Of a DNA stretch of 64,000 nt, positions 20,869-39,611 are shown one piece after another. Where the stretch lies: assembly GCA_964484485.1 (NCBI GenBank), contig CAZAGD010000033.1, forward strand, positions 1,238-65,237, in the 5' to 3' direction. Each line of letters begins with the position of its first letter. The stretch's first letter is position 1. The notes under the pieces were generated by a model, which did no database searches, was not told the DNA's origin, and saw nothing but the letters and a program-made list of their open reading frames with translations. A program made the position numbers and the translations under genes. Source of the DNA: an uncultured Syntrophaceae bacterium. GTDB taxonomy: Bacteria; Desulfobacterota; SM23-61.

Positions 20869-22044
20869 TTAAAAATCTTTTTTTCCTTTTACCAATTCGA
20901 TAATTTTCTGAGCTGCCTCAGCCATATTGCTGTATGTTTTAATATTTAAACCAGATTCTTCTAATATCTTCCTCCCCAATTCCACGTTCGTCCCTTCCAT
21001 CCGAATCACCAAGGGAACGGGTAAAGGATTTTCGCGGAGGGCTTCGACAATACCTTCCGCATAGCTATCACAGCGGGTTATTCCGCCAAACATATTCACA
21101 AAAATTCCTTTAACTTTAGGATCGGAAGATAGCAGGCTGAAAGCATTGCGAATGACTTCTTTGGAAGCACCGGCGCCAGCATCCAAAAAATTAGCCGGCT
21201 CTCCACCATAACAGCGAAGAAGATCTAAGGTCGCCATCCCTAAACCCGCGCCGTTGACGATGCAACCAATATTCCCGGGAAGGCTAACGAATCTAAGATT
21301 TAGTCTTTCCGCTTCCAAGTCTCGCGGATCTTCTTGTTCAAAATCACGCAGGGCTAAAAGGTCAGGATGGCGAAAGAGAGCATTGTCGTCAATTTCCATT
21401 TTGGCGTCTAAAGCGACTAAATCACCGGCAACGGTCAAAGCCAAAGGATTAATCTCGGTGAGTACACAGTCGTTATCCATGAAAGCTCGGTAAAGAGCCA
21501 AGCTTACGGCTGACCACTTACCTATAGTATTTCCCGCTAAGCCCAACTCAATAGCCAAACGTCTTCCTTGGAAAAGAGTAAGCCCGCAGCCGGGCTCAGC
21601 TATTATTTTCTTTATCTTTTCGGGGGATCTTGAGGCTACTTCTTCAATTTCTACTCCCCCTTCAGCGCAACCGATCATAGCCACTCGGCCTTTTTGTCGA
21701 TCAATGGTTACTCCTATATAAAATTCCTGGGCTATGGGAATACTTTCTTCTACCAACACCCGGCTCACCTTTTTCCCTGCTGGGCCTGTCTGCTGGGTGA
21801 CCAATTTGGAGCCGATTAATTGGCGAGCAACTTGGGCGACTTCTTGATAATTCCTTACTTGGCTAATTCCTCCCCATTTCCCCCTTCCACCGGCATGAAT
21901 TTGGGATTTTACCACAAATGGGCCTGAACCAATTGCTCGGGCAGCGGCCTCGGCCTCGGCGATCGTAAAAGCTACTTGTCCTTTTGGTATTTTAATTCCA
22001 TAGCGAGCCAAAATTTCTTTGGCTTGGTACTCGTGAATGTGCAC
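20869..22044 (-). CDS. sucC: succinyl-CoA synthetase beta subunit
   Basis: ATP-grasp N-terminus MHIHEYQAKEIL, conserved SucC motifs. Confidence 0.9.
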   Translation of the reverse strand: MHIHEYQAKEILARYGIKIPKGQVAFTIAEAEAAARAIGSGPFVVKSQIHAGGRGKWGGISQVRNYQEVAQVARQLIGSKLVTQQTGPAGKKVSRVLVEESIPIAQEFYIGVTIDRQKGRVAMIGCAEGGVEIEEVASRSPEKIKKIIAEPGCGLTLFQGRRLAIELGLAGNTIGKWSAVSLALYRAFMDNDCVLTEINPLALTVAGDLVALDAKMEIDDNALFRHPDLLALRDFEQEDPRDLEAERLNLRFVSLPGNIGCIVNGAGLGMATLDLLRCYGGEPANFLDAGAGASKEVIRNAFSLLSSDPKVKGIFVNMFGGITRCDSYAEGIVEALRENPLPVPLVIRMEGTNVELGRKILEESGLNIKTYSNMAEAAQKIIELVKGKKDF

Positions 22045-22094
22045 AGGCTACTCCTCTTATTAAAAACTCCCCTGCTAAATCTATTTACTAAAAT

Positions 22095-22793
22095 TTAATA
22101 TTTCTCACTGAGCACTTTCTTCTTCAATTCGCCAATTGCCCAAGTGGGATTAAGAGATTTAGGACAGATAGTGCAATTGAATATAGTATGGCATCGCCAA
22201 AGGCCATGGCGATTATCTAAAATCGGTAGGCGCTCAGCAAATCCCTCATCGCGCGAGTCAAAGCAATATCGGTAAGCTTTGAGCAGGGCTGCTGGTCCCA
22301 AAAATTGGGGATCAGCCCAATAGGAAGGACAAGAGGAAGTGCAAGCGCCACAGAGGATGCATTCATAAGAGCCATCGATTTTTTTTCTATCGGTGACGCT
22401 TTGATAACGCTCTTTGTCCGTTGGCGGTGTGCCGGCAATTAAATAGGGTTTGACGGCTTCATATTTTTTATAAAAATCTTCCATATCAACCGCCAGGTCT
22501 TTGATTACGGGAAAATGCCGCAAGGGTTCGATTTCAATCACCCCTTGGCCCAGAGACTTAACCTGAGTCTCGCAGGCCAGCCGATTCAATCCGTTGATCG
22601 TCATGGCGCAAGAACCGCATATGCCATGACGGCAAGAACGGCGGAAGGTAAGACTACCATCTTGTTTCCATTTTATTTCATTCAACACATCTAAGATGGT
22701 CATCCCCTCCTGTACATCTACCTGATAGTTTTTATAATATGGCTTTTGGTCTTCATCTGGATTAAATCTGAAAATTTTAAAGGTCTGGATCAT
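22095..22793 (-). CDS. sdhB: succinate dehydrogenase / fumarate reductase iron-sulfur subunit
   Basis: 2Fe-2S (CRHGICGSC) and 4Fe-4S/3Fe-4S Cys motifs. Confidence 0.9.
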   Translation of the reverse strand: MIQTFKIFRFNPDEDQKPYYKNYQVDVQEGMTILDVLNEIKWKQDGSLTFRRSCRHGICGSCAMTINGLNRLACETQVKSLGQGVIEIEPLRHFPVIKDLAVDMEDFYKKYEAVKPYLIAGTPPTDKERYQSVTDRKKIDGSYECILCGACTSSCPSYWADPQFLGPAALLKAYRYCFDSRDEGFAERLPILDNRHGLWRCHTIFNCTICPKSLNPTWAIGELKKKVLSEKY

Positions 22794-22804
22794 CGCTCTG
22801 CTCC

Positions 22805-24562
22805 TTAAAATTTTCTTTCTTCTGGTTGGAAACGGGTAACGACTACTGGCTTATAATCCAAGCGAATTCCCGCTTCTGTCTTCCAGGCTAAGGTATGTTT
22901 CATCCAGTTAATATCGTCTCGCTTGGGGAAATCAGTCCGGTAATGGGCTCCCCGACTTTCAGTACGCGCTAATCCACCCACCACGATAGTTTCTACAAAA
23001 TCCAGCATATTGCCTAACTCTATGGCGTCTAAAAGTTCGGTATTGAACCTTTGACCTTTATAGCCCACGCTGATCTCCCGATAACGCCCCTGTAAAGACT
23101 TAATAATCTCCAGTTGCTTTTTCAGCAGTTTTTCTTCTCGGAAGATGCCACAGTTGACCATCATTGTTTGTTGTAATTCTTCGCGAATAGCCGCGGGACT
23201 TTCTTTTCCTTGAGCGGCTAACAACCCTTCTATTTTAGCTCGGCTTCTCTCCATAGCATCTTTGGGGAGATCTATTTTTTCTGCTCCGCCATTAATAAAT
23301 TTGCTCATGGCTCGTCCTGTTCTGCGTCCATATACTGCACAGTCCATGGTGGAGTTGCATCCCAGACGATTTGCCCCATGGACGGATACACAAGCACATT
23401 CCCCCGCAGCGTAAAAGCCTATGACTGGAGTATTTTGGGCATCTTTTACCACTTGGCCATGGACATTGGTAGGTATACCACCCATAGCATAATGGGCGGT
23501 GGGCAAAATTGGCACCAAATCAGTGACGGCATCAATTCCAGCGAACTTAAGGATTAATTCATGGATCTGGGGTAATTTCTCTAAAATCGCTGCTCGGCCC
23601 AAGTGCCGAAGGTCCAGGTGCACATAACCTTTCCCGCCAATACCTCGGCCCTCATCAATTTCCCTTTGAATGGACCGGGAAACTACATCTCGGGGAGCGA
23701 GCTCCATTTTGGCGGGAGCGTATTTTTCCATAAAGCGTTTACCTTCGTTATTGATTAGATAGCCGCCTTCGCCACGGGCTCCTTCGGTAACTAAAACCCC
23801 CGAAGGGTAAAGCCCTGTAGGATGGAACTGCACAAATTCCATATCTTCTAAGGGGAGTCCGGCCTGTAAAACTATGGCCATTCCATCTCCTGTATTTGAT
23901 AAAGCATTGGTATTGACTTTCCACGCTCGGGCATACCCTCCGGTGGCGAACATGACTGCTTTAGCATGGAAAATATGCAAACCGCCATGTTGCATATCCC
24001 AAGCGACGACGCCACAGCAAGTATTGTCCTTTAAAATTAAATCTAAAACAAAGAATTCGTTATAAAAACGAACATCATGCTTGAGGCATTGTTCGTAAAG
24101 AGTATGCAACATGGCATGCCCAGTGCGATCTGCGGCATAGCAAGCCCGCCGAATTGGTCCTTTACCAAAATTGCTATAATGACCGCCAAACTCGCGCTGG
24201 GCAATTTTTCCACTCTCCGTGCGGCTAAAAGGGCAGCCCATATGCTCTAATTCATAGGCAACTTCTATGGCCTCGCGCACTAAAATCTCCTGCGCATCTT
24301 GATCACCCAAATAATCTGCGCCCCGGACGGTGTCATAGAGGTGCCATTCCCAGCTATCCTCTTCCATATTTCCTAAGGGAGCAGCCGTTCCTCCTTGCGC
24401 GGAGATAGAATGAGAGCGGGTGGGAAAGACTTTGGAAAGAACAGCCGTATCTATGGAGCGACTCGTCTCCAGCGCGGCATAAAGACCGGCGATTCCCGCC
24501 CCGACAATTACCACATCATGTTCATGAATCATCATCATCCTCCATTTTGTTTCATCCCCCAA
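22805..24562 (-). CDS. sdhA: succinate dehydrogenase / fumarate reductase flavoprotein subunit
   Basis: FAD fold [10 protein letters not shown], covalent-FAD His region [10 protein letters not shown]; true start may be the internal MMMIHEH. Confidence 0.9.
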
Positions 24563-24641
24563 ACGATGAATGGATTTAACTTAAAAAGCTTTTCATTATT
24601 CTCTGCGTTCGCAGGTAGCGACCTCTGCGGTAAAAAAATTT

Positions 24642-24944
24642 TTAACTACCAAAAGGCACTATAGTTACCACCCCTAAAATAAGAAAAGTTATGCCCACTA
24701 TCCAGGTCAAGCCGAAAAGGGAAACGCGCAACCAAGCGGTGTGTACGTAGTCAGCAATTATTATCCAAAAGCCATTCAAAATATGATAAAGAAGGAGAAG
24801 CACAAAGAAAAGGTGAAAGAATTTCCAAAAGGGGCTGCCCAGATCAACAGGTGAGATACCCCAATGAACCGCGCCTAAATGGATAACCAAGATCAGAACA
24901 ATCAAAATCCCGCTAATCCTTTGAAATAGCCAATTAAAAGCCAT
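24642..24944 (-). CDS. succinate dehydrogenase membrane anchor subunit (SdhD-like)
   Basis: 100 aa, 3 TM, adjacent to sdhC/A/B. Confidence 0.6.
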   Translation of the reverse strand: MAFNWLFQRISGILIVLILVIHLGAVHWGISPVDLGSPFWKFFHLFFVLLLLYHILNGFWIIIADYVHTAWLRVSLFGLTWIVGITFLILGVVTIVPFGS

Positions 24945-24953
24945 ATTCCCCTC

Positions 24954-25277
24954 CTATAAAGCAGTCAGAGAGCCTAAGAAAAAGATTACTCCCAAGACGA
25001 TCATCACCCAAAAGAGTTTCTTATGGTAGAGCGCACCCTGCCCAAAATCAATGATTAATACGCGCACCCCATTTAGGGTATGATAGATCAAAAAGGCCAT
25101 GAGTAGCGCGACCATAACCTTATGGGTAAGAAAATCGCTTAGCGCTGCCAAACCTTTCTGATCATATTTCATCCCGAATTGAGCCAATATATGGAGCAGC
25201 AGATAAATTCCTAAAGCTGCGCCAGTGATCCTATGGATCAACCAAGCTATTGCTCCTGTTTGCCAACGATAACGCAT
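24954..25277 (-). CDS. succinate dehydrogenase cytochrome b subunit (SdhC-like)
   Basis: 107 aa, 3 TM with conserved His. Confidence 0.6.
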   Translation of the reverse strand: MRYRWQTGAIAWLIHRITGAALGIYLLLHILAQFGMKYDQKGLAALSDFLTHKVMVALLMAFLIYHTLNGVRVLIIDFGQGALYHKKLFWVMIVLGVIFFLGSLTAL

Positions 25278-25364
25278 ATTCTTCTCCTTTTTTCCAAAAG
25301 AGGACGCCGATTGACCCGCTATCTTTTTCTTCCGGAAAGTCTGAGTTAATCTGCGTCCAAATTT

Positions 25365-25919
25365 CTACCGGGCATATTGGGCCATGCCCTGCTGGTACAA
25401 GTCATTTCCATAAATATCATTGACGACAATTACGGGAAAATTTTCCACCTCCAGCCGGCTTATGGCTTCCGGACCAAGATCCTCGTAAGCTACCACCTCA
25501 GCTTTCTTTATGGCCTTGGCTAAAAGGGCGCCTGCTCCACCCGTGGCCGCGAAATAAACTGCTTTATATTTTTTCATGGCTTCCACTACCTCTTTTTTGC
25601 GCATGCCTTTGCCGATCATGCCTTTTAAGCCTACTTCCATAAGCTTAGGAGAATAGGCGTCCATACGGCCACTAGTAGTAGGACCGGCAGAGCCAATAAC
25701 TTGCCCCGGCTTAGCGGGCGCTGGTCCCACGTAATAGATCACTTGTCCTTTGAGATCTATGGGCAAAGGCTTCCCTTCCTGGAGTAAGTCAAAAAGGCGT
25801 TTGTGGGCCGCATCCCGGCCTGTATAAATAACGCCGCTTAAAAGGACTTTATCACCTGCTTTTAATTTTTCCACATCCGCATCTGTAAGAGGAGTTTTTA
25901 AACGAATTGGGCCACTCAT
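25365..25919 (-). CDS. class I fumarate hydratase, beta (C-terminal domain) subunit
   Basis: Fe-S hydro-lyase beta domain motifs (LSGVIYTGRDAAHKR; AVYFAATGGAGAL). Confidence 0.85.
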   Translation of the reverse strand: MSGPIRLKTPLTDADVEKLKAGDKVLLSGVIYTGRDAAHKRLFDLLQEGKPLPIDLKGQVIYYVGPAPAKPGQVIGSAGPTTSGRMDAYSPKLMEVGLKGMIGKGMRKKEVVEAMKKYKAVYFAATGGAGALLAKAIKKAEVVAYEDLGPEAISRLEVENFPVIVVNDIYGNDLYQQGMAQYAR

Positions 25920-25934
25920 TTTTCATCTCCTTCC

Positions 25935-26798
25935 TTAAATAATTGCTTCCTTATGCCGATGAGCATGGCAATTAAGGTTAATGGCTAAAGGAAAGCTGGC
26001 AATATGGCAAGGGATCATCTCAGCATGGACAGCTAAAGCAGTTATCCGGCCTCCTAACCCCTGGGGGCCGATCCCCAAATTATTTATGCGGGCCAATAGA
26101 TCTTCTTCCAGGGCGGCCAGTTCTGGATCTGGATTCTTCTGCCCTAAGGGGCGTAAAAGAGCTTTTTTAGCAATCAAAGCGGCCTGCTCATAAGTTCCGC
26201 CAATACCAACGCCCACTACTACTGGTGGACAAGGATTGGAACCAGCCTGTTTTACCCACTCCACAACTCTTTTTTTCAACCCTTCTTTTCCTTCAGAAGG
26301 ACTTAACATCATCACCGTAGACATGTTTTCACTCCCCCCACCTTTGGGGGCAACCGTGATCTTGATTTTATCACCCGGGACCATTTCCAGATGAATAATA
26401 GCCGGGGTATTATCTTTCGTATTTACCCGGGAAAAACAATGGCAGGCTGATTTTCTTAGATATCCTTCTTTATACCCCTGGCGGACACCTTCATTAATGG
26501 CCGCATTAAAATCTCCGCCCGTAATATGCACATCCTGTCCCAACTCCACAAAAACAACGGCCAAACCGGTATCCTGGCAGATGGCCACTTGTTCTTCGCG
26601 AGCTATACGGGCATTCTCTTTAAGCTGCTGAAAAACCTCGCGGCCCACAGGCGACTCCTCCATTTTTTCAAATTTATCAAAAGCAGCCAGCACATCCTCT
26701 CCTAAATAAAGATTAGATTCAATACATAGATTTTTGACGACTTCTGTTATCTGACTAGCGTAAACTTCTCTCATCTTCAACCTCCTTACGGCAAGCAT
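25935..26798 (-). CDS. class I fumarate hydratase, alpha (catalytic N-terminal domain) subunit
   Basis: Fe-S hydro-lyase alpha domain (CQDTGLAVVFVELG; Cys ligands). Confidence 0.85.
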   Translation of the reverse strand: MLAVRRLKMREVYASQITEVVKNLCIESNLYLGEDVLAAFDKFEKMEESPVGREVFQQLKENARIAREEQVAICQDTGLAVVFVELGQDVHITGGDFNAAINEGVRQGYKEGYLRKSACHCFSRVNTKDNTPAIIHLEMVPGDKIKITVAPKGGGSENMSTVMMLSPSEGKEGLKKRVVEWVKQAGSNPCPPVVVGVGIGGTYEQAALIAKKALLRPLGQKNPDPELAALEEDLLARINNLGIGPQGLGGRITALAVHAEMIPCHIASFPLAINLNCHAHRHKEAII

Positions 26799-26886
26799 GA
26801 AGGAGGGACCAAATAATTATCTTCGTCCCTCCTTATTTTATTCTGGTAAATCTTTTTCCTCCTTTACCCCGAGGAAAAATTTCTGC

Positions 26887-28224
26887 TTATTTTTCCGTGT
26901 AAGCAGGGATTATTCCTTTTTCCATTAAAACCTGCGTTTCCATTCTGGCTCTGCGGATCGTTTCTGAGGCTTTTTGGAAAAGTTCTTCTTTACTCAATTT
27001 GATGCGGGCCACTCCCTGCTCAATGGCTTTCAAAGCTGTGGCCACGGCCTGCCTGGGGAATACTTCCCATTCCTCCATGGTGGGCAGGATATAGTCTTCT
27101 CTAAGGCCTTTATCTTCCGCACACTTAGCTAATTCGAGAGCGGAGGCAATGCACATTTCATCGGTAATCGTCCGGGCCATAACATCAAGAGTGCCGCGGA
27201 AAATGGCGGGGAAACAGAGACTATTGTTAACCTGGTTGGGAAAATCAGAACGCCCCGTAGCCACAATTTTAGCTCCACCTTCTTTGGCCTCCCAGGGATA
27301 TATTTCCGGGATGGGATTGGCGCAGGCGAAAACGATAGGATCTTTGGCCATTTTCTTTATCCACTCTTTTTTAATCACATCAGGTCCAGGTTTGGCCAAG
27401 GCAATAACTGCATCTGCTCCTTCCATTGCTTCCGCTATCCCACCCTGCCTTTGTTCGGCATTAGTAATCTGGCAGAAGTGCCATTTTTCTTTAAATTCTT
27501 TCTGCGTATCAGTCCGTCCTTTGTGCAAAGTACCTTTTGAATCGACCATAATTATTTTTCCCGGATCAGCCCCGGCCGCAATAAGAATCCGAGCGGTAGC
27601 GATATTAGCCGCACCGGCGCCGATCAAAGTTAAGCGGGCTTTATCTAATTTCTTGCCCACCACTTTTAAGGCATTCACCAAACCCGCTAAAGTTACCGCG
27701 GCTGTCCCCTGCTGGTCATCATGCCAAACGGGAATTTTGGCCTCTTTCCGCAGCGTATCCAAGATGTAGAAACATTTGGGTTGGGATAAATCTTCCAGGT
27801 TGATCCCCCCAAAACAAGGAGAGATTATTTTTACTGTTTTAATAATCTCATCAGGGTCTTTAGTATCCAAAGTAATCGGCCAGGCATCGACCCCACCCAG
27901 ATACTTGAAAAGAATGGCTTTACCCTCCATAACCGGGATAGCCGCCTCAGGACCAATATCTCCCAATCCTAAAACCCGAGTGCCATCGGAAACTACAGCG
28001 ATCATGTTGGCCTTATTAGTATGCTCAAAAACTTTCTCGGGATGAGCTTCAATATCCCGGCAGGCCGCGGCCACGCCCGGAGTATACCAAATGGCAAAAT
28101 CGTCAAATGTACGCACCGGGCATTTGAGAGTAGAAGAAATCTTCCCTTTGTAAAAGGGGTGCATCTTTAAAGCATCCGCCGAAGGCTTTTTGGATCTTGC
28201 TAATAATTCTTCTTTAGTTAACAT
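26887..28224 (-). CDS. NAD(P)-dependent malic enzyme (oxaloacetate-decarboxylating malate dehydrogenase)
   Basis: Short-type malic enzyme; Rossmann GAGAANIATARIL; divalent-cation site. Confidence 0.85.
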   Translation of the reverse strand: MLTKEELLARSKKPSADALKMHPFYKGKISSTLKCPVRTFDDFAIWYTPGVAAACRDIEAHPEKVFEHTNKANMIAVVSDGTRVLGLGDIGPEAAIPVMEGKAILFKYLGGVDAWPITLDTKDPDEIIKTVKIISPCFGGINLEDLSQPKCFYILDTLRKEAKIPVWHDDQQGTAAVTLAGLVNALKVVGKKLDKARLTLIGAGAANIATARILIAAGADPGKIIMVDSKGTLHKGRTDTQKEFKEKWHFCQITNAEQRQGGIAEAMEGADAVIALAKPGPDVIKKEWIKKMAKDPIVFACANPIPEIYPWEAKEGGAKIVATGRSDFPNQVNNSLCFPAIFRGTLDVMARTITDEMCIASALELAKCAEDKGLREDYILPTMEEWEVFPRQAVATALKAIEQGVARIKLSKEELFQKASETIRRARMETQVLMEKGIIPAYTEK

Positions 28225-28302
28225 GTCTTCCTCCTTTTTTTCTGCGCCGTTTTAAATTTTCCTTATTTTTACCTCTTTCTTCCAATAAAGCAAAGACAAA
28301 TT

Positions 28303-29979
28303 TTAAAGTTTAGTTATTGGTTCATATTCCCCGAACACCTCCCGTAAAACATCGCATATTTCCCCCAAGGTGCAGTAAGCCCGCACACAGTCCAAGATAG
28401 GATACATCAAATTGCCATCACCTTGGGCCACTTGGCGTAATTCCTTTAAAGAACTCTTTACTTTTTCGCCATCTCTTTCTCGCCTTAATTCGGCCAATCT
28501 TCTGACCTGTACTTCCCTTACCCGGGGGTCAACCTTCAATAATCCTTTTGGCGGGGGCTCTTTGGTCTGAAACCTGTTTACCCCCACAATAACCCTTTCT
28601 CCACGCTCGATCTCCTTCTGATACCTGTAAGCGCTCTCCTGAATTTCCTGCTGGATATAACCTTTTTCAATCGCCGCTACTGCTCCGCCCAGTTGGTCAA
28701 TCTTGGCTAGGTAAGCGCTGGCCCTTTTCTCTATCTCCTCGGTGAGTTTCTCGATATAAAAAGAACCTCCCAAAGGATCTATGGTTTCGGCCACTCCTGA
28801 TTCATAGGCAATTAATTGCTGGGTGCGCAAGGCGATCTGGACCGATTGCTCTGAAGGTAAAGCCAAAGCCTCATCCATGGAGTTGGTGTGCAAAGACTGG
28901 GTTCCGCCTAAGACGGCAGCCAAAGCCTGCCAAGCAACCCGAATTATATTATTGAAAGGCTGCTGGGCGGTTAGTGTACACCCCGCGGTTTGGGTATGAA
29001 AGCGGAGCATTAAGGAGCGCGGATTGCGAGCATGAAACCTTTCTTTCATGATCTTGGCCCAGAGCCTGCGGGCCGCGCGGAATTTGGCTATTTCTTCTAA
29101 GAAATCAAGGTGAGCGTTGAAGAAAAAGGAAATCCGCGGGCCAAAAACATCCACGTCTAAACCGGCTTTCTGCGCGGCTTCCACATAAGCTATGCCATTG
29201 GCTAAAGTAAAGGCTACTTCCTGCACCGCGGTACACCCGGCCTCCCGCATATGATAGCCACTAATACTAATCGTATTCCAATTGGGGACTTTTTGGGCAC
29301 AATATTCAAAGGTATTCGTAATGATCCGCATGGAATGCTGAGGTGGAAAGATGTAAGTTCCCCGCGAGGAATATTCTTTTAAAATATCATTCTGGATGGT
29401 GCCGTTAAGCTGGTCGGGAGAAACCCCTTGTTTTTCAGCAACCACAATATACATAGCTAAAAGGATGGCTGCTGGAGCGTTGATGGTCATGGAGGTAGAA
29501 ACTTTTTCTAAGGGAATTTGGTCGAAGAGAATCTCCATATCCCGCACGGAATCAATGGCTACGCCCACTTTACCCACTTCTCCTTGGGCTAAAGGATGAT
29601 CCGAGTCATAACCAATTTGCGTCGGCAAATCAAAAGCCACGGAAAGACCTGTTTGCCCTTGATCTAAAAGATAGCGATAGCGTTTGTTCGTATCTTCAGC
29701 GGTGCCGAAGCCGGCGTACTGCCGCATGGTCCAGAAACGACCTCGATACATGGTGGGCTGCACGCCGCGGGTATATGGATATTCTCCAGGTAAGTTTAGA
29801 TTAGCTAGGTAATCCAATTCGGCAATATCCGCGGGGGTATAGATCCTTTGGATAGGTATGCCGGAAGTGGTCTGAAACTCCTTCTTTCTTTCTGGGTTTT
29901 TCACCAAAGACTTCTCCACCGTCTCCGTCCATTTTTTAACATTTTCTTCAATTTCGGCTATTTTTTTGGGGTCGAACAT
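28303..29979 (-). CDS. methylmalonyl-CoA mutase large-subunit catalytic (substrate-binding TIM barrel) domain protein; no B12-binding domain in this ORF
   Basis: Acyl-CoA mutase family N-terminal barrel motifs ([20 protein letters not shown]; [23 protein letters not shown]); 558 aa ends before cobalamin-binding domain. Confidence 0.85.
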
Positions 29980-30008: not shown

Positions 30009-31892
30009 TTAAAGTTTACTGCTCATCTTGGGCTTGCTTTTATCTTGGCTTTTCTTTTTAATCAATATTTCTTCTTCTTTTTCGGCCTTGGCTAAATCTT
30101 CGAACTTAATATCTAAGCCACAAACGCCAACAATTTGCCCAATTTTATCTCTAATAGGGGCCGAGACGGTTAAACATAAACGCCCAGTTATCTTCGAAGT
30201 ATACAGTTCACTCACGTGCACCTGTCCATCTTTTAAAGGTTCGATAAACCAGGAACGGTCAGAGTAGTCTTCATGTAAACCGACTATTTCATATTTCGCC
30301 TTATCCACCACTTGGGTAATATTCTTGGTGATCTTCCGTCCTTCTAAATCGGTAACGTAAGCGAATTGAATAAAGGGGTGGTCGGCCACTAATTTCAGCA
30401 AAAGGGGCTCAATTAGCTTCGGTTTCATAGACTTTAAAGGAGCAGCTTCAATAATTTCTTCTATAAGATGAGCAGCCATTTTATGGGCGCGGGTCTTGAT
30501 GCGGTCAAAATCCGAGACGAAAAACTCGGGCAGATGTTTTCGGGCTTGCCGTTCCATCTCGGTATGCGAAATACTGGTGACCCTGCCTTCGTTATACTGG
30601 TCCATCACCCATTTATAAATTTTAGCTATCCCGGGATGTCGTTTGTCTACCCTCTTTTCCGGTGGTAGCTTTAAGTGGGTGTTCACCCAATGGGCAATCC
30701 CTGCCAGGCCTGATTTGTCAGTAATGATAATGGACATTGGTCGTTTGAGAATCTTGGCGGTATTGAAGATATTATATATTTCCGCCGACTTGGCTAAAGC
30801 ATCTATATGGATGCCCGCCCCCGTAGTATTAAAATCCAGTCCTACCAAGGGATAATTGATGGGAATATGCACCCCCATCTCTCTTTCCGCGTATTGCGCG
30901 ATGTCGGTAATCACGGTAGTATCGATACCGTTTGTTTCTCCGCGCAAGGCAATGTACTCAATGATCAAGGCCTCCAAGGGCGTATTCCCCGTTCTTTCTC
31001 CCAACCCCAAGATGGCTCCATTAGCTGCTGCGCAACCATATAGCCAAGCCGTGGTGGCATTTATAAGCACTTTATGGAAGTCGTTATGCCCATGCCATTC
31101 TAAAAGTTCTCCGGGCACTCCTGCCTCATCAATCATGGTACGTACTAATTTGTCTACAGCGCGGGGCAAAGCTGCGCCCGGATAAGTAACTCCATAGCCC
31201 AAGGTATCGCAAAGGCGGATTTTGACCGGCATTCCACTTTTTTCCCGGAGCCTCATCAAGGCTTGGGCAAAAGGGACGCAGAACCCAAAGATGTCGGCCC
31301 GGGTTACATCTTCGAAATGACATCGCGGAATAATACCTGCGTCCAGGGCAGCTTCGACAATGTCCAGATATTCATCAAATACTTGCCTTCTTTTCTTGCC
31401 CAGTTTCAAAAAAATATGGTAATCGGAAACAGAAGTGAGGATACCTGTTTCTTTTAAGCCCATTTCTTTGACTAATTTTAGATCCTTTTTGTTGGCCCGG
31501 ATCCAACCCGTAATTTCTGGGTACGGATAACCTTTCTCTAAACATTTGGTTACCGCTTCTTGGTCGCGCTGGCTGTATAAAAAAAATTCTGTTTGCCTAA
31601 TTACCCCCTGCGGTCCCCCTAACTTGTGCAGCATGTCAAATAAATCTACAATCTGTTTGACGGTGAAAGGAGGTCGGGCTTGTTGCCCATCTCTAAAAGT
31701 AGTATCGGTGATAAAAAATTCTTTTGCCGGACAAAGAGGAATTATTTTGTGATCAAAATCAATCCGGCTTACTTCTTCATAAGGGAAAACTTCCCGTTGC
31801 AAATTTGGTTCGGCCACATCTTGTAAATCTAAGCGCCAAAATTTAGTATGTTCGTGGGTCAGCAACCGGCGTTCTTCATCCCACTTGGCCAT
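30009..31892 (-). CDS. DRE-TIM/HMGL-like 2-oxoacid:acyl-CoA condensing enzyme of long-form LeuA type (isopropylmalate/citramalate/homocitrate/Re-citrate synthase family) with C-terminal Cache/PAS-like domain
   Basis: DTTFRDGQQ, HFEDVTRAD, LCDTLGYG, HGHNDF...LGLGERTGNTPLE motifs; N-terminal PYEEV segment like long-form LeuA. C-terminal ~200 aa FAYVTDLEGRKI...DRSWFIEPLKDGQVHVSELYTSKITGRLCLTVSAPIRDKIGQIVGVCGLDIKFEDL matches Cache/PDC sensor pattern, not the LeuA dimer regulatory domain. Confidence 0.6.
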   Translation of the reverse strand: MAKWDEERRLLTHEHTKFWRLDLQDVAEPNLQREVFPYEEVSRIDFDHKIIPLCPAKEFFITDTTFRDGQQARPPFTVKQIVDLFDMLHKLGGPQGVIRQTEFFLYSQRDQEAVTKCLEKGYPYPEITGWIRANKKDLKLVKEMGLKETGILTSVSDYHIFLKLGKKRRQVFDEYLDIVEAALDAGIIPRCHFEDVTRADIFGFCVPFAQALMRLREKSGMPVKIRLCDTLGYGVTYPGAALPRAVDKLVRTMIDEAGVPGELLEWHGHNDFHKVLINATTAWLYGCAAANGAILGLGERTGNTPLEALIIEYIALRGETNGIDTTVITDIAQYAEREMGVHIPINYPLVGLDFNTTGAGIHIDALAKSAEIYNIFNTAKILKRPMSIIITDKSGLAGIAHWVNTHLKLPPEKRVDKRHPGIAKIYKWVMDQYNEGRVTSISHTEMERQARKHLPEFFVSDFDRIKTRAHKMAAHLIEEIIEAAPLKSMKPKLIEPLLLKLVADHPFIQFAYVTDLEGRKITKNITQVVDKAKYEIVGLHEDYSDRSWFIEPLKDGQVHVSELYTSKITGRLCLTVSAPIRDKIGQIVGVCGLDIKFEDLAKAEKEEEILIKKKSQDKSKPKMSSKL

Positions 31893-32550
31893 AAATTCCC
31901 CTAACTTTGGCGTTTCTTTTCTTGGAAATTCTGCGGGATAAATTATTTATCTGGCTCTGCACCAGAAAGTCAATTATTTCCTCTTTGCGAAAATACGGCT
32001 TTAAGATCCACCGACGCAAAACTCCGAAAACACCGCTGAAGACTAAGAAATTGGCTTCTAAAAAAGGGTCAAACGCCCCTGGCCCCAACTCACTAATCAA
32101 CCTTTGAAAATGATCAACAATTTCGAATTCTTTCTGCAAAATAACCTTTAAATAATCTTTTTTTACGTAACGCGCTTGCGTATAAGAAAGCATTACTTGA
32201 TCTTCCAATTCCATGGCTGCTTCCACAAAAGCTCGGTAATTAATTTTGAGCCGCGCCAAAGGGTCAGCTACCTGACAAGTCCTCGATCTAACTTTAGCAA
32301 AAAAATTAACCACATAATTTTCGAAAAAAAGATAGAGAATATCATCTTTGGAACTAACATAATCATAGATACTGCCCAAACTGAGACCTGCTTCGCGAGC
32401 TATCTCCCGCACGGTTGCTTTATGGAAGCCCTTCCTTTTGAATACTTGGATAGCTCCCGCAATGATTTGCCGCCTTTTTTCATCCACTAATTTGGCATCT
32501 TTAACTTGGGCTTTGATTAGCATAGGCGCCCTTGGCGAACGAATGTTCAT
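31876..32550 (-). CDS. TetR/AcrR-family transcriptional regulator
   Basis: N-terminal HTH VREIAREAGLSLGSIYDYVSSKDDIL; first gene of the long minus-strand array. Confidence 0.8.
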   Translation of the reverse strand: MNIRSPRAPMLIKAQVKDAKLVDEKRRQIIAGAIQVFKRKGFHKATVREIAREAGLSLGSIYDYVSSKDDILYLFFENYVVNFFAKVRSRTCQVADPLARLKINYRAFVEAAMELEDQVMLSYTQARYVKKDYLKVILQKEFEIVDHFQRLISELGPGAFDPFLEANFLVFSGVFGVLRRWILKPYFRKEEIIDFLVQSQINNLSRRISKKRNAKVRGIYGQVG

Positions 32551-32620
32551 TCATAGAGCATTATAAATCCCTGACGTTTTCTGTCAAGTGAAAATTTGGC
32601 TGATGGTCGATAACTTTTTA

Positions 32621-32713
32621 AATTCTAGTCTAATTCAAGGGGGAGGAGAGGCTCAATTTTAAATTCCAGCTTAATTCAGGCGGGAGGAAGATAGGCTCTC
32701 CCCCTCCCGCCTG
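32621..32713. promoter_or_regulatory. direct repeats (AATTC.AGC.TAATTCA.G.GGGAGGA x2) plus 11-bp hairpin CAGGCGGGAGG/CCTCCCGCCTG in tetR-gap divergent intergenic region; candidate operator
   Basis: Read directly at 32621-32654, 32662-32699 and hairpin 32677-32687/32703-32713; TTGACA -35-like hexamer at 32772 before gap. Confidence 0.3.
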
Positions 32714-32792: not shown

Positions 32793-33845
<1,053 letters not shown>

Positions 33846-33946: not shown

Positions 33947-36900
33947 ATGACTGTAAACCGCCAGTTGGAAGAAGTGCAGAAAGAATTAAGAGCCCGGGAA
34001 ATTCCCCAAGAAGTCCTTGAATCGGCCGCCCTCCAAAAGAATCTCCAAGAAACATCTGTGGCCCAGCTCCAAATTGATCCCAAATATGAAGTGCTCATAG
34101 AGACGGTAGAAGGTTATCGGGGCATTCAGAAAGCTGCCGAAACCTTGCTCTTTGAGTTGCATCATCCCTTTAAAAATTGGGAAATAATCTTGCGGGAAAT
34201 GCGCTCTTTTGCCTTAAAGTATTTTACCGCCTACAGCCGTCATCCTCGCGGGTCCCAAGCCATATCCGCCATTATTGATGTCTTTTTTGAGGCTATAAGC
34301 CAGGTTAACTCTGATAGCTTACAAATAAAAGCTATCGATTATTTGCTCAATTATTTGGAAAAGATCGTTAATGAGCTAAACGGCCAAAATCATGGCGAAA
34401 TTTGGCCGATATTGCAACTTACTTGTCAGCGTTTGGCTTCCCTTCCTGACCAGCAATTTTTTTATTTGGCTTCCAGCCATATCCCTTTAAAAAAGATCGG
34501 GCAGGCTTTATTGCTTAAACTCCCCGAAAATTCTTTTTTACCGGAATTTAATAATCTTTTCATGCGCAGCCTGAAAATTACCTACGCTTATTGGCTGCAA
34601 GAAGAAGATCCGCTCTGCTGGTTTGATAAAGCGGGATCTGCGCCAGTTCTGGGCGAGCAATTAAAATATCCAGATGTCCTCCATTTAATTTCTCATCAAC
34701 ACTTAAAGTCTCTGGTTCAAGAGTTAGAAAATTTTTCGGGCCAGGAAGAATTTAAAAGTAATGGCTCTCTGCAGCTTCTCCGTCATCTCTTGACCTTCCC
34801 TTCCTACTTAGACATAGTACGGGCTTACAAAGAAATTCCTCACCTTTGGCCTGCTCCGCAAACGGCGGAAAAAGAAATTCCTCTTTTAGAGAATAAAAAA
34901 ATATTAGCCCTCTTTAAAATAATGGAAATTCCCGGGCTAAAAGATATTCACGAAGAAACTTTAAGGGAAATTAATCATACGCTCGTGGAACTCATCCGCC
35001 AAGAACCGCCGGAACGGATGCGCGAATTTCTAATTAAGACTTTTTCCCTCCTCAAGTCCAGTATGGAAAATTACCCCCATACGGCCTTGCAGTGCATCCA
35101 AACCTTAGGCGCAGAAATTTTTAATCAAGGTTATAGCCCTTTGGTGGAAGTCTTCTTAGAGTTAGTCTTACATTTCGGTTTTCAATACCCTAATGTGCAG
35201 GGGGTGGACACAAATTGGCAGTTAATCTGCAATCCCTGCCATTTGCTCAATGTGCGGGTCTGGTTGGATATTATTGGCCGAAATCCGAAATGGTGTAGTA
35301 CGCTCCTTTCGGCCCTCATAATTAACTTAAAATTAGCAGGCATTTGCATAAGGGATACTGATCTTTTTCAAAAAGAAGTAAGCAAACTGCTCAATGCCGA
35401 AATTGAGCCCGTCTACAATTTAATCAAGCAATTAGCGAAATTATTTCCCGTATATTTCAACGAAATTGGGGCGGAAGGAGAATTACGCGAGGCTACCACC
35501 GAGATAGATGAAATTACTTATCGTAAGGATCTCCTCATTCATTTTCTCCGTAAACAAAGTCATGTGGAGAGTAGTAATCTCATCGAGGATTTCGTTAGGG
35601 AAATAATCCGTTTTTGGCGCTTAAGAGATAAAGAGGGGTTAAAGAATTTTCTACCGGCGGAGATTTGGGGAAAGATAGAGATTACCGGCCCTTTCATCGA
35701 TGAAGTTAATTATATCGTTCAAAAGATCTTTGCCGAGAAAAGGCTCCAGAGCGAAAAGGATCTTTTAGGTCTAACCGATCGTGAACTGTCCGCCTTTATG
35801 GCTGCCTTGCCGGATGTGGCGGAGACGGAAAAGAAACGGGTCTCTTTGTTAATCAAGATTTACCGGCTTATTAATCAGAAGTATAACTTAGGCTTTCAGG
35901 AAATTGCCGCCCATTTGCAGGAAGCTTCCCGCTGGGGCTTCGAGGGCTTGGATGCTCTTTTACGGGTTATCGAGCGCAACGACCCCGAAGAATGTCTGGA
36001 ACATATCTTGTCCTATCTGGAAAATTTGAAGAAAATTATTCTTTCCCCCCAAAAATTCGAAGCCCGGGAAGATATCTACCGCAAACGGCATATAGCAGCT
36101 GACATTCCCTCTCTGTATGGTCGCTATCGCGAGCGGAAATTCGATGCCTTAGGTTTAACTTTTCGTTTAGAAAATTTGGCGAATATCTATTTTGAAAGAC
36201 TCATCGACTCTTTAGATCTTTCCTTTATTACTCGGGCTACCTTTTTTAAAATCATCTCCTGTTTGCGTTATCTCATGCGGGCTATCGAATTAGATGGCAT
36301 CTTTTCGCCGCGGCTTAATACCCAGCTTATGCTCTTAGAAAAATCTTTAGAGATAAAGCGCTTCACTTTTATGCAGTACCTGGACATATTCCGCGGCTTC
36401 TCCGAAGGAGTTAAAGATGTCATTTCCGTTTATTATGTGAATGCCCATAAAAATAACTTGGAGCTTTTAATTTGGCAAATGGGTAAAAAGAATATTCTGC
36501 CCAAATATCTGCCCCCTTCCGCTGAAGAAATTGGCCCCCATGAGTTTGTCCATCAAATAGGTGAAAAATTTATTCGCGATCTGATCGCTAATACTTTTGG
36601 CCTGCAGTACTTGGATATTTTCTTGGCGCGAATTCAACAAACGCTGGCCGAGCAGAGAGAAACTTTGAACGAAGCTGACCTCGATTTGCTGATGACTTAT
36701 GACCCCAAAAAAGTATGTTGTTTAATCCACCATCCCAATCGCTTGACTAATGATCTAATTCATTTGGGGAGTAAAGGGTATAACTTAGTGGTCTTAGCTT
36801 CCGAAGGCATCCCCGTACCTCCCGGCTTTATTCTGACTACGGAAGTATTCCGCTGCCTAAGGATAATTGAACGTTATCGGCACGCCCACGACCATTTGGA

Positions 36901-38242
36901 ACGGGAAGTCCGCTTTGGCCTGCAGCAAATTGAAAAAGCCACCGGACGTGAATTCGGTAATCCGCAACGGCCGTTACTCTTGGCCGTGCGCAGCGGGTCC
37001 ACAATATCTATGCCAGGGATGATGGCCACTTTATTAAATGTGGGTATAAATGAGGAGATCGTAGAAGGGTTGATCCGCTTCACGGGGGAAACTTGGTTTG
37101 CTTGGGATAATTATCGGCGTTTTATCCAATCCTGGGGCATGTCTTATGGGATTGAACGGGAAGTTTTTAACGAGATCATGCGCCACTTCAAAGCTAAGTA
37201 CAGAGTAGAAAAGAAGAGACAATTCTCCGGGGAAGAAATGAAAGAAATAGCTCTAGCCTATCGCCGCGCCGTCGAAGAAAGACATATCACTATCTATGAA
37301 GATCCCTGGGCCCAATTACAAGTAGCCATTAAACAAGTCCTTTCTTCTTGGAATTCCATCAAAGCCAGGCAATACCGAGAAATTATGGGTATTTCCGACT
37401 ATTGGGGAACGGCGGTGATTGTGCAAGCGATGGTCTTTGGTAATCTCAGCCTCTCCTCGGGCAGCGGGGTAGTCTTCACGGCCCATCCCTACCGAAAAAT
37501 TAGACGGGTGGCCCTGTGGGGTGATTTTACTCCCGGCAACCAAGGGGAAGATATTGTCGGGGGCTTAGTCTCTACTTATCCCATCTCCAAAGAACAAAAA
37601 GAATTGGAGGGAAGGGAAGAAGACTTGGAGGAAGCCTTCCCTAAAATATATAAGCGTTTATTTGAGATTGCCAAAACATTAGTCTATGAGAAAAAGTGGA
37701 ACCCCCAAGAAGTGGAGTTTACTTTCGAAAGCCCAGAAGAAAATAGTCTATACATTCTGCAGACCCGCGATATGGTCTCAACTAAAAGGGAAAAATTTGA
37801 GGTATTTACACCCTCGCCCTCTCTGCAAGAGAGTTTTTTGAGTAAGGGAATTGGCGTAAGCGGGGGGGCCCTTTCCGGGCGGGTAGTATTTAACTTAGAA
37901 GAGATTCATCATTGGCGCAGGTTGGAGCCAACGACTCCGCTCATTCTTGTTCGATCCGATACAGTGCCGGAAGATATCCAGGAAATTTCCTTAACCAATG
38001 GGTTGCTCACGGCAAAAGGCGGCCAAACTTCTCACGCGGCGATCGTGGCTTTTGAATTGGATAAGACGGCCGTGGTAGGTTGCCGCGGTTTAATAGTTTT
38101 AGAAAATGAAGGAAGACTTTTTATTAATCACGTGGAAATAAAGAGAGGTGACTTCCTCAGCTTAGACGGTAGAAAGGGTTTAGTTTATTTGGGCAAGCAT
38201 GAAATTAAGGCAGAAGAAGATCTCCCCACTTTTTTAGTTTAA
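33947..38242 (+). CDS. 1431-aa multidomain protein: novel ~920-aa N-terminal region fused to PPDK/PEP-synthase-type ATP-grasp nucleotide-binding domain and phospho-histidine swivel domain; lacks the PEP/pyruvate-binding TIM barrel (putative dikinase-like phosphotransferase)
   Basis: Residues ~930-1230 match PPDK_N (GYNLVVLASEGIPVPPGFILTTEVF; LLLAVRSGSTISMPGMMATLLNVGINEE); residues ~1340-1420 match the PEP-utilising mobile domain (GGQTSHAAIVAFELDKTAVVGC); ORF stops right after the swivel domain. Confidence 0.6.
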   Translation: MTVNRQLEEVQKELRAREIPQEVLESAALQKNLQETSVAQLQIDPKYEVLIETVEGYRGIQKAAETLLFELHHPFKNWEIILREMRSFALKYFTAYSRHPRGSQAISAIIDVFFEAISQVNSDSLQIKAIDYLLNYLEKIVNELNGQNHGEIWPILQLTCQRLASLPDQQFFYLASSHIPLKKIGQALLLKLPENSFLPEFNNLFMRSLKITYAYWLQEEDPLCWFDKAGSAPVLGEQLKYPDVLHLISHQHLKSLVQELENFSGQEEFKSNGSLQLLRHLLTFPSYLDIVRAYKEIPHLWPAPQTAEKEIPLLENKKILALFKIMEIPGLKDIHEETLREINHTLVELIRQEPPERMREFLIKTFSLLKSSMENYPHTALQCIQTLGAEIFNQGYSPLVEVFLELVLHFGFQYPNVQGVDTNWQLICNPCHLLNVRVWLDIIGRNPKWCSTLLSALIINLKLAGICIRDTDLFQKEVSKLLNAEIEPVYNLIKQLAKLFPVYFNEIGAEGELREATTEIDEITYRKDLLIHFLRKQSHVESSNLIEDFVREIIRFWRLRDKEGLKNFLPAEIWGKIEITGPFIDEVNYIVQKIFAEKRLQSEKDLLGLTDRELSAFMAALPDVAETEKKRVSLLIKIYRLINQKYNLGFQEIAAHLQEASRWGFEGLDALLRVIERNDPEECLEHILSYLENLKKIILSPQKFEAREDIYRKRHIAADIPSLYGRYRERKFDALGLTFRLENLANIYFERLIDSLDLSFITRATFFKIISCLRYLMRAIELDGIFSPRLNTQLMLLEKSLEIKRFTFMQYLDIFRGFSEGVKDVISVYYVNAHKNNLELLIWQMGKKNILPKYLPPSAEEIGPHEFVHQIGEKFIRDLIANTFGLQYLDIFLARIQQTLAEQRETLNEADLDLLMTYDPKKVCCLIHHPNRLTNDLIHLGSKGYNLVVLASEGIPVPPGFILTTEVFRCLRIIERYRHAHDHLEREVRFGLQQIEKATGREFGNPQRPLLLAVRSGSTISMPGMMATLLNVGINEEIVEGLIRFTGETWFAWDNYRRFIQSWGMSYGIEREVFNEIMRHFKAKYRVEKKRQFSGEEMKEIALAYRRAVEERHITIYEDPWAQLQVAIKQVLSSWNSIKARQYREIMGISDYWGTAVIVQAMVFGNLSLSSGSGVVFTAHPYRKIRRVALWGDFTPGNQGEDIVGGLVSTYPISKEQKELEGREEDLEEAFPKIYKRLFEIAKTLVYEKKWNPQEVEFTFESPEENSLYILQTRDMVSTKREKFEVFTPSPSLQESFLSKGIGVSGGALSGRVVFNLEEIHHWRRLEPTTPLILVRSDTVPEDIQEISLTNGLLTAKGGQTSHAAIVAFELDKTAVVGCRGLIVLENEGRLFINHVEIKRGDFLSLDGRKGLVYLGKHEIKAEEDLPTFLV

Positions 38243-38318: not shown

Positions 38319-39611
38319 ATGAATAGCCAGTTAAAGGTGGAGTTTGTGGAGAAAGAAAATAAAAAGAGTTCTTTGAAGTTGGGCATAAACGGTCTGGGGC
38401 GCATCGGCAAATTAACTCTTTGGCATCACGTAGCGCGGGGATATTTTGCGGAATTGATCGTAAATATAGGGCGGGAGGCTGGAAGAAGTCTCCAGGATGT
38501 AGCAGACTACATAGTTCATGACAGCACTTACGGTCATTTAGCTAACTATCTTTTTGGATATAAGGGTGGGCGAGTTATTGAGAATCTTAATGAGGAACAT
38601 GGCACGATGTTAGTTAATGGAGTGCCCGTGACCATCCTGCGCCGAGATCGTAATCCAAAAGATTTGCCATGGAAACAAATGCAGGTGCCCATAATAGTGG
38701 AGGCTACGGGCAAGTTTTTGGACCCGACCGCTCCACCAGATTTTAAAAATGGTTCTATCAAGGGACACTTAGCTGCCGGCGCTCAAAAAGTGTTGGTTTC
38801 TGCTCCTTTCAAGATCAAAGATAAATCTCTGCCTATGCCTGAAGAAGCAATTACTATGGTCATGGGCATAAACGACCACCAGTATCAAGCGCTCAAGCAT
38901 AATATTATCTCGGCCGCTTCTTGTACAACCACTTGCTTGGCTTTTATGGTTAAACCGCTCCTTGATTATTTTGGGGCGGATAGGATTTTAAGTGCCTCCA
39001 TGGTCACCGTGCACGCCGCCACTGGTTCCCAGGAAGTTTTAGATCGTCTTCCTGATCCCAAAGCGGATGACCTTAGAAAAAACAGGTCTATTATGAACAA
39101 TATAATCCTCACCTCTACTGGAGCAGCTAAAGCCTTGGCTTTAGTCATTCCCGAAATGAAGAAAATCGGGTTTATTGCTGAATCGGTGCGCATTCCTACT
39201 AATACCGGCTCTTTGATAGTCTTGGTGGTAAATATTCAGGATGAAAACTTAGAAAATCCCATAAATCGAGAAAAAATCAATCAAGTTTATCAGCGCGCCG
39301 CGGCCACTTATATGCAGAAATACCTTTGCTTTAGTGAAAGGCAAAACGTATCTTCCGATATAATTGGCACTCCCTTTGCGGCGGCCATTATCGAGGGAGC
39401 GGAAACCCATACACGCACTGCCCATATTTGCGTGGATCTGGCCAAGATTCCTGGACTTCCCAAAGAAATTTCTGCACCAAAAGGCTCTTGCCTCGTTGAA
39501 ATCCCGGTCACTCAAGCTGTCGTTTACGGTTGGTACGATAATGAATTGGGCAGCTATACCAATATGTTGGGAGACTTAACCGTCAAAGTGGCTGAAGAAC
39601 TCCTTCTTTAA
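38319..39611 (+). CDS. divergent GAPDH-family dehydrogenase paralogue (430 aa) with N-terminal extension and large insertions
   Basis: GINGLGRIGK NAD motif, SAASCTTTCLAFMVKPL catalytic Cys, VHAATGSQ, WYDNELGSY; about 95 aa longer than canonical gap. Confidence 0.6.
   Translation: MNSQLKVEFVEKENKKSSLKLGINGLGRIGKLTLWHHVARGYFAELIVNIGREAGRSLQDVADYIVHDSTYGHLANYLFGYKGGRVIENLNEEHGTMLVNGVPVTILRRDRNPKDLPWKQMQVPIIVEATGKFLDPTAPPDFKNGSIKGHLAAGAQKVLVSAPFKIKDKSLPMPEEAITMVMGINDHQYQALKHNIISAASCTTTCLAFMVKPLLDYFGADRILSASMVTVHAATGSQEVLDRLPDPKADDLRKNRSIMNNIILTSTGAAKALALVIPEMKKIGFIAESVRIPTNTGSLIVLVVNIQDENLENPINREKINQVYQRAAATYMQKYLCFSERQNVSSDIIGTPFAAAIIEGAETHTRTAHICVDLAKIPGLPKEISAPKGSCLVEIPVTQAVVYGWYDNELGSYTNMLGDLTVKVAEELLL

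Follow-up and report, generated by a model that had tools for sequence, protein, structure and literature searches.

A predicted Re-citrate synthase with a C-terminal cytoplasmic Cache domain in an uncultured Syntrophaceae bacterium

We analyzed a 64,000-nucleotide stretch of DNA (the window) from an uncultured Syntrophaceae bacterium (GenBank assembly GCA_964484485.1, contig CAZAGD010000033.1, positions 1,238 to 65,237 of the forward strand), focusing on the gene at 30009..31892 on the minus strand. By orthology, its product is predicted to be a Re-citrate synthase (EC 2.3.3.3 type) of the kind found in Desulfobacterota, in which the catalytic region is followed by a C-terminal Cache/PDC domain. 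We favor, with fair but far from full confidence, a reading in which this Cache domain is an allosteric domain that binds a small metabolite, probably an amino acid or amino-carboxylate. Anaerobes without the usual Si-citrate synthase rely on Re-citrate synthases, oxygen-sensitive, homocitrate synthase-like enzymes, to form citrate from oxaloacetate and acetyl-CoA; these enzymes supply the oxidative branch of the tricarboxylic acid (TCA) cycle that leads to 2-oxoglutarate and glutamate.

Assignment as a Re-citrate synthase

We compared the window protein with two enzymes termed known, isolated Re-citrate synthases (PMC12016533): SYN_02536 of Syntrophus aciditrophicus and CKL_0973 of Clostridium kluyveri. 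Over residues 1-602, Cache module and N-terminal leader included, the window protein matches SYN_02536 at 64% identity. The two proteins have the same order of leader, barrel, linker and C-terminal Cache domain, and they share the SDRxWF, YxSKxTG and GxDI strings of that domain; they differ in organism, in gene neighborhood, and in the tail after residue ~602, which is unrelated. Identity to CKL_0973 is 49% across residues 28-456, spanning leader, barrel and linker. CKL_0973 stops opposite residue ~456, at the start of the Cache domain, and like many unfused relatives it has no C-terminal sensor module. Both reference sequences come from Table S1 of the cited paper and were machine-read with dropped residues, so the identities are lower bounds.

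In a neighbor-joining tree built from residues 28-456 with 100 bootstraps, the window protein and one homolog (L001) are sister to the S. aciditrophicus enzyme and another homolog (L008) with 81% support. A larger clade, supported at 77%, holds both characterized Re-citrate synthases, every Cache-bearing form, and other unfused forms of ~450-476 amino acids. Some close homologs carry the Joint Genome Institute (JGI) name citrate (Re)-synthase. Given 64% identity, a common architecture and a common clade with a purified enzyme, we assign the window protein by orthology as a Re-citrate synthase of the Desulfobacterota type, with its function predicted on that basis. An earlier reading of the window from its letters and open reading frames, without database searches (the sequence-only reading), had proposed a citrate- or methylcitrate-type synthase; the identity to SYN_02536 and the shared clade uphold the first half of that proposal, as a Re-citrate synthase, and the methylcitrate half finds no support. 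The S. aciditrophicus enzyme is reportedly a homotetramer with subunits of ~72.9 kDa; acetyl-CoA and oxaloacetate are said to be its only substrates, and it is said to be active as isolated, with no effectors added. A subunit of that mass is in keeping with the fused form.

The gene is a complete open reading frame of 627 amino acids with an ATG start, and the encoded protein has a predicted mass of 71.3 kDa. All intervals given here for its parts lie on the minus strand. The N-terminal leader (residues 1-59; 31716..31892) was delimited by alignment to both characterized enzymes: residues 28-59 align with the C. kluyveri protein and residues 1-59 with that of S. aciditrophicus. It is 43% identical on average among fused homologs and is modeled with low confidence in the full-length structure prediction. 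The leader noted in the sequence-only reading is therefore present, yet these alignments mark it as a trait of the Re-citrate synthase family and not specifically as the long-form leader of LeuA.

The leader is followed by a catalytic DRE-TIM/HMGL-like barrel (residues 60-340; 30873..31715), which matches Pfam HMGL-like (PF00682) over residues 61-333 with an E value of 9e-31 and contains R67-D68, H267-x-H269 and G298-ERTGN. Next comes a post-barrel segment of helical linker and subdomains (residues 341-460; 30513..30872), which carries the GIH362xD motif and at whose end unfused Re-citrate synthases stop; in relatives, this segment shows an HCS_D2-like match. All of the DRE-TIM metallolyase motifs (R-D, H-x-H, GERxGN and GIHxD) are thus present. 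The catalytic residues R67, D68, H267, H269, E299 and H362 are invariant among 50 homologs and align with those of CimA (3ble), and the barrel as a whole averages 69% identity across 78 genomes. The Pfam match and the motifs bear out the earlier recognition of a condensing enzyme of the LeuA/homocitrate synthase family. The protein ends in a variable, Lys/Glu-rich tail (residues 606-627; 30009..30077, stop codon included) that has 25% mean identity among homologs and a predicted local distance difference test (pLDDT) score below 50.

We ruled out identification of the protein as LeuA, CimA or NifV, since all of the corresponding equivalog models score far under their cut-offs. Among the NCBIfam equivalog models, nifV_homocitr scores best, with 137.8 bits where the cut-off is 462.9; leuA_bact reaches 82.9 bits (cut-off 598.7) and CimA 82.9 (cut-off 950). 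The closest solved structures by sequence match in their catalytic domains only and belong to CimA, homocitrate synthase and LeuA, the best being CimA 3ble with an E value of 7.5e-25.

A single-module Cache domain and its conserved pocket

Profile searches, structure prediction and fold comparison all point to the last ~165 residues as a single cytoplasmic Cache/PDC module (domain at residues 461-605; 30078..30512, minus strand). Residues 502-601 match Pfam MCP-like_PDC_1 (PF22673) with an E value of 1.5e-15; the score of 58 bits exceeds the gathering score, which is 27. The related dCache_1 model (PF02743) stays under its cut-off (32.7-36.5 bits against 45), and its match is limited to the distal half of the profile, at positions ~57-155 of 240. 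We modeled the C-terminal 176 amino acids alone, using 20 homologs, and obtained a pLDDT of 82.8 and a predicted template modeling (pTM) score of 0.75. In the predicted topology, two helices at the N-terminus lead into a PDC sheet, which is followed by a C-terminal helix; together they form one PDC module and not a double Cache. AlphaFold2 modeled the full-length protein with mediocre overall confidence (pLDDT 68, pTM 0.54), but residues 461-600 are at pLDDT 74-90.

Comparison of the domain model with the PDB using Foldseek returned matches at probability 1.00 to KinD (both pyruvate-bound and pyruvate-free), amino-acid-bound Tlp3, YkuI and DctB, and likewise to DcuS, CitA, PctC, Mlp37 and CtaA; the KinD and Tlp3 matches have E values of ~1e-7. 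No LeuA regulatory domain appears among the top 50 matches. A profile of the domain gave consistent results at the sequence level: the best PDB matches are the distal ligand-binding modules of Tlp3 (E 1e-7), KinD (E 1.6e-5), PctA, PctC, Mlp24 and Mlp37. A canonical C-terminal domain of the LeuA_dimer type was ruled out on the lack of a Pfam match, the PDC model and the PDC fold matches. The proposal in the sequence-only reading that a Cache/PDC domain stands in place of the LeuA/CimA regulatory domain is thus confirmed by PF22673, a confident model and Foldseek, and the fold is of the KinD/Tlp3 type and not that of the LeuA regulatory domain; the strings on which that proposal was based (DRSWF, SELYTSKITG, TVSAPI and GQIVGVCGLDI) are all present at residues 545-595.

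The synthase is predicted to be soluble, with no transmembrane segment; the highest Kyte-Doolittle value over a 19-residue window is 1.1. Because the protein has no hydrophobic segment, all of it, the Cache module included, is predicted to be cytoplasmic, and on the same ground we ruled out that the Cache domain lies in the membrane or the periplasm. The closest sensors, the amino-acid-binding dCache_1 proteins (Tlp3, PctA/B/C and Mlp24/37) and KinD, share the PDC fold and the equivalents of R126, W128, Y129, Y144 and D173 discussed below, but are periplasmic double modules that lie between the transmembrane helices of chemoreceptors and kinases. The window domain, in contrast, is a single cytoplasmic module fused to a metabolic enzyme, and lacks the equivalent of Y121. 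It has the Cache fold, but its cytoplasmic location, its single module and its enzymatic partner are atypical. The C-terminal PAS-like domain of YkuI (PF10388; PDB 2bas) is likewise a cytoplasmic PDC/PAS-like module C-terminal to an enzyme-type domain; it matches in Foldseek with an E value of 1e-6 and a template modeling score (query) of 0.60, and it has a weak Pfam match with marginal sequence similarity (E 0.027 to 0.047). The partner in YkuI is the EAL domain of cyclic di-GMP signaling and not a metabolic synthase.

In the published amino-acid motif of dCache_1 domains, Y121, R126 and W128 touch the carboxylate of the ligand, and Y144 and D173 touch its amino group (PMC8915833). R126 separates amino-acid sensors from amine sensors, D173 is common to both, and Y129 is a structural aromatic (PMC10104139). 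We identified the equivalent positions through HMMER sequence alignments to Tlp3, PctA, PctC, KinD and Mlp24, so these are sequence equivalences and not structural superpositions of side chains. The first pocket motif, D545-R546-S547-W548-F549 (30246..30260, minus strand), was placed by alignment to all five proteins. R546 corresponds to PctA R126 and KinD R131, both of which contact a carboxylate, and to a lysine in Tlp3; W548 aligns with PctA W128 and F549 with the structural aromatic Y129. The second motif, Y564-T-S566-K-I-T569 (30186..30203, minus strand), contains Y564, equivalent to PctA Y144, and its Y-x-S-x-x-T-G string recurs in KinD as YSSRITG. Finally, D594 (30111..30113, minus strand) corresponds to PctA D173, a residue that contacts the ligand amino group and whose change to asparagine (D173N) abolishes binding in PctA; D594 aligns with the aspartate of GVDI in Tlp3 and of GGDL in PctA, while the pyruvate binder KinD has no aspartate there. 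The window domain therefore keeps four of the five published motif positions (R546, W548, Y564 and D594).

These positions are strongly conserved among the 78 fused homologs, which are only 50-73% identical overall. W548, F549, S566 and D594 are found in 100% of them, T569 in 97%, R546 in 95%, and Y564 in 83%, with phenylalanine in a further 8%. Mean identity is 54% in the PDC core, against 69% in the barrel and 34% in the N-terminal helices of the Cache domain. Of 95 core positions, 15 are at least 90% conserved, and R546, W548, F549 and D594 all fall within these 15 (hypergeometric P ~4e-4). Judged from the alignments, this pattern is what a conserved ligand site would show, and not what a degenerate spacer would.

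The fusion is widespread. All 120 of the best protein clusters (65-95% identity, 599-643 amino acids) carry PF00682 together with PF22673 or PF02743. Scanning one genome per species gave at least 600 matches, of which we analyzed the best 80 loci, and 78 of these encode the fused form; of the other two, L079 is cut by a contig end and L080 is truly unfused (468 amino acids). The closest genome locus among the matches listed is 73% identical. When proteins are clustered at 50% identity, fused representatives of 615 (P0121) and 593 (P0124) amino acids appear alongside many unfused ones of 440-476 amino acids that span residues ~20-460. By record title, the best 80 loci are mostly from Desulfobacterota, gut Desulfovibrio and Bilophila included: they come from Syntrophales, Syntrophobacterales, Desulfobacterales, Desulfomonilales, Syntrophorhabdales, Thermodesulfobacteriaceae, Desulfovibrio, Bilophila and Mailhella, and also from metagenome-assembled genomes labeled Nitrospirota, Omnitrophota, Armatimonadota, Spirochaetales, Lentisphaerae, Elusimicrobia and Termititenax. 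Branching inside the Re-citrate synthase clade has less than 60% bootstrap support, and the order in which the Cache domain was gained and lost is for that reason not readable from the tree. From these sequence comparisons, the fusion is the standard, well-conserved form of Re-citrate synthase across Desulfobacterota, and it is already present in a purified enzyme; the description of the architecture as unusual in the sequence-only reading does not hold.

Public names within the family are discordant (among homologs P0008, P0042, P0047, P0065, P0076, P0089 and P0119) and include "histone-lysine N-methyltransferase", "triose-phosphate isomerase", "EAL-associated domain-containing protein" and "cache domain-containing protein", next to "citrate (Re)-synthase" and "isopropylmalate/homocitrate/citramalate synthase". 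With the NCBIfam models all under cut-off, the family is systematically misnamed or under-annotated. Several relatives bear other additions: P0122 has an N-terminal response-regulator receiver domain, sub-threshold matches to ACT domains are seen in P0193 and P0166, P0153 (833 amino acids) has an ATP-grasp/L-amino-acid-ligase module, and unannotated C-terminal tails of 70-130 amino acids extend P0145 and P0142.

Candidate roles of the Cache domain

We propose that the Cache module would serve as the allosteric regulatory domain of the enzyme. LeuA and CimA share with the window protein the DRE-TIM fold and motifs and a layout of barrel, helical linker and extra C-terminal domain, and in both enzymes the end-product amino acid feeds back through that domain. 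The Cache module follows the post-barrel linker, just where LeuA and CimA have their Leu/Ile-binding domain, and the receiver and sub-threshold ACT domains of relatives can be counted as a sign of a regulatory slot in the family; this placement and these regulatory add-ons together lead us to read the module as allosteric. The C-terminal fold itself differs, being of the LeuA_dimer regulatory type in LeuA and CimA and Cache/PDC here, as does the substrate, which is 2-oxoisovalerate or pyruvate in those enzymes and, by orthology, oxaloacetate in the window protein.

In the proposed mechanism, a small metabolite would bind in the pocket lined by R546, W548, Y564, S566, T569 and D594, and occupancy of the pocket would be relayed to the catalytic barrel within the oligomer. 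The small-molecule regulation suggested in the sequence-only reading is plausible given how well the pocket is conserved. Since the pocket keeps both the carboxylate-binding arginine and the amine-binding aspartate, the likeliest ligand class would be an amino acid or amino-carboxylate. Glutamate is the first candidate because it is the end product of the branch opened by Re-citrate synthase; its binding would amount to feedback control, with the same end-product logic, acting through a C-terminal domain, as in LeuA and CimA. The narrower proposal that this cytoplasmic Cache amino-acid sensor sets Re-citrate synthase activity in response to glutamate or another amino acid related to it (aspartate, for example) is a tentative one, which we hold as possible and would not yet expect to be borne out.

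Several observations weigh against an amino-acid-binding allosteric domain. Validated amino-acid sensors are double Cache modules, whereas the model here shows a single one, and dCache_1 is below its cut-off. The equivalent of Y121 is not conserved: the position is occupied by E541, five residues before R546, and is variable among homologs (E in 35, Y in 11, T in 10, and others). Conservation of the pocket could partly mirror fold constraints of the PDC family, and the Y-x-S-x-x-T-G string shared with pyruvate-binding KinD is also compatible with a plain carboxylate ligand. Unfused enzymes such as that of C. kluyveri work without a Cache domain. Because the full-length model is mediocre, interdomain contacts cannot be claimed from it. 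Biochemical data on this Cache domain were not found in the literature searched, which did not include the paper on the S. aciditrophicus enzyme. Our search, a limited one whose outcome is weak evidence, likewise found no literature linking Cache domains with Re-citrate synthase or HMGL-like enzymes and none on cytoplasmic Cache domains.

The alternative that survives best keeps the enzyme and the regulatory role of the Cache domain and changes only the ligand, to a plain carboxylate such as pyruvate, oxaloacetate, malate, citrate or 2-oxoglutarate, so that the domain would sense substrate or product levels. KinD, which was crystallized with pyruvate, is the top structural match and the second-best sequence match, and its R131 aligns with R546. 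The YTSKITG string of the window protein is closer to YSSRITG of KinD than to that of any amino-acid sensor, the C4-dicarboxylate and citrate sensors DctB, DcuS and CitA are among the fold matches, and the Y121 position of the amino-acid motif is missing. Set against this, D594 is conserved in every fused homolog and aligns with the amine-contacting aspartate that KinD lacks, and the best sequence match (E 1e-7) is the amino-acid receptor Tlp3. We regard a plain carboxylate ligand as unlikely, if well worth keeping in view.

A second alternative, in our judgment distinctly improbable, is that the Cache domain is a structural or oligomerization domain, for example one used in building a tetramer, with no regulation by a ligand and with its pocket conserved for folding. 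PDC domains often dimerize through long N-terminal helices, and residues 461-504 form helices of that kind; the S. aciditrophicus enzyme is, as mentioned, reportedly tetrameric and active without effectors; in addition, W548 and F549 match aromatics of which one is described as structural. The conservation pattern favors a ligand site over an interface, however, since the polar residues R546, S566, T569 and D594 are 95-100% conserved, compared with 34% identity in the N-terminal helices of the domain, and unfused family members need no Cache domain at all.

Last, we consider it very improbable that the protein is another DRE-TIM condensing enzyme (a 2-methylcitrate, citramalate, homocitrate or isopropylmalate synthase) tied to propionate/methylmalonyl-CoA genes: the synthase adjoins methylmalonyl-CoA mutase and TCA genes, generic JGI names (isopropylmalate/homocitrate/citramalate synthase) are common, and substrate specificity in this superfamily is not readable from sequence alone, but the 64% identity, shared architecture and supported clade with a purified Re-citrate synthase, the NifV, LeuA and CimA equivalog scores of 83-138 bits against cut-offs of 463-950, and a mutase neighborhood in only 5 of 80 loci (isocitrate dehydrogenase in 9, aconitase-like genes in 6) all speak against it, and the methylmalonyl-CoA route needs no methylcitrate synthase.

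Gene neighborhood and implications

The sequence-only reading had placed the synthase at the head of a TCA/propionate gene array and taken that setting as a functional clue. The first gene of the putative operon is instead a TetR-family regulator (31876..32550, minus strand; PF00440 TetR_N, E 2e-13), whose 3' end overlaps the start of the synthase gene by 17 nt, making the synthase second. Downstream, a co-oriented array (20869..29979, minus strand), annotated from Pfam, NCBIfam and small open reading frames, encodes in order methylmalonyl-CoA mutase, malic enzyme, the alpha and beta subunits of class I fumarase, two small membrane subunits of succinate dehydrogenase/fumarate reductase, SdhA, SdhB and SucC, followed by a TRAP transporter.

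Comparison with the 80 related loci shows that this array is specific to the lineage, and the neighborhood thus gives no argument for a methylcitrate-type function. In none of these loci was a TetR homolog found next to the synthase gene. Where TCA-type genes do occur, isocitrate dehydrogenase follows the synthase (9 of 80 loci), or an aconitase/LeuC-like pair is found (6 and 3 loci). The commonest neighbors lie upstream on the same strand and are aspS (34 of 80) and hisS (28 of 80). With the mutase gene downstream in 5 loci, TetR in none, and aspS and hisS commonest, we ruled out synteny as evidence of a functional tie to propionate/methylmalonyl-CoA genes. The hisS-aspS-Re-citrate synthase arrangement, with aspS directly upstream, is far commoner than any TCA-gene neighbor.

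Upstream of the TetR gene, a consensus scan identified a promoter-like TTGACA-16-TATAAT (32560..32587, minus strand) that matches the sigma-70 consensus at 12 of 12 positions, as a consensus match only. It ends ~9 nt before the annotated TetR ATG, a spacing that implies either a nearly leaderless transcript or a true TetR start codon further downstream. A possible TetR operator is a short inverted repeat overlapping the -35 hexamer, TGACAG...CGTCAG (32550-32590, minus strand). The divergent intergenic region between TetR and a gene for glyceraldehyde-3-phosphate dehydrogenase (GAPDH) also contains an 18-nt inverted repeat at 32677-32713, which is 83% complementary with a 1-nt gap (CAGGCGGGAGGAAGATAG / CTCTCCCCCTCCCGCCTG). 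An Rfam scan found no regulatory RNA near the synthase gene, the only hit being a tRNA at 7.5 kb.

Elsewhere in the window, SucD (13455-14336, minus strand) and SucC (20869-22044, minus strand) are not adjacent and lie ~6.5 kb apart, and two separate three-subunit sets of 2-oxoacid:ferredoxin oxidoreductase genes lie close to each other (10507-13191, minus strand; 15266-17735, plus strand). On the plus strand, 33947-38242 encodes a 1431-residue protein that matches pyruvate phosphate dikinase (PPDK_N and PEP-utilizers mobile domain) only in its last ~490 residues, with no family match to the ~940 N-terminal residues. This gene is flanked on the same strand by a normal GAPDH gene (32841-33845) and by a gene for a 430-residue GAPDH-like paralog that scores just under the type I GAPDH cut-off (38319-39611). 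At the other end of the window, positions 1-9000 have a low GC content (36-39%, compared with ~45% elsewhere) and a strong positive GC skew. This stretch encodes a DUF3987/winged helix-turn-helix protein and a tyrosine integrase adjoining tRNA-Arg(ACG), with notable intervals at 361-1527, 6475-7539 and 7546-7622, and looks like a mobile element integrated at a tRNA site.

The window gene is an ordinary ortholog of a characterized enzyme and not a new architecture, and its function can now be given the right name. Cache domains have been described mainly as extracellular sensors of signaling proteins; here, a single Cache domain, predicted to be cytoplasmic, is attached to the enzyme that opens the oxidative branch of the TCA cycle. 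Knowing its ligand would reveal how syntrophs and sulfate reducers control the flow of carbon into glutamate synthesis. If the ligand is an amino acid, the known amino-acid-binding Cache motif would extend to direct enzyme allostery. Should the Cache domain prove to set the activity of the enzyme in response to glutamate or a similar amino acid, it would be the first to act directly as the allosteric domain of an enzyme of central metabolism and not as a signaling input, and it would provide a feedback analogous to that of leucine on LeuA, yet independently evolved, across Desulfobacterota including gut sulfate reducers.

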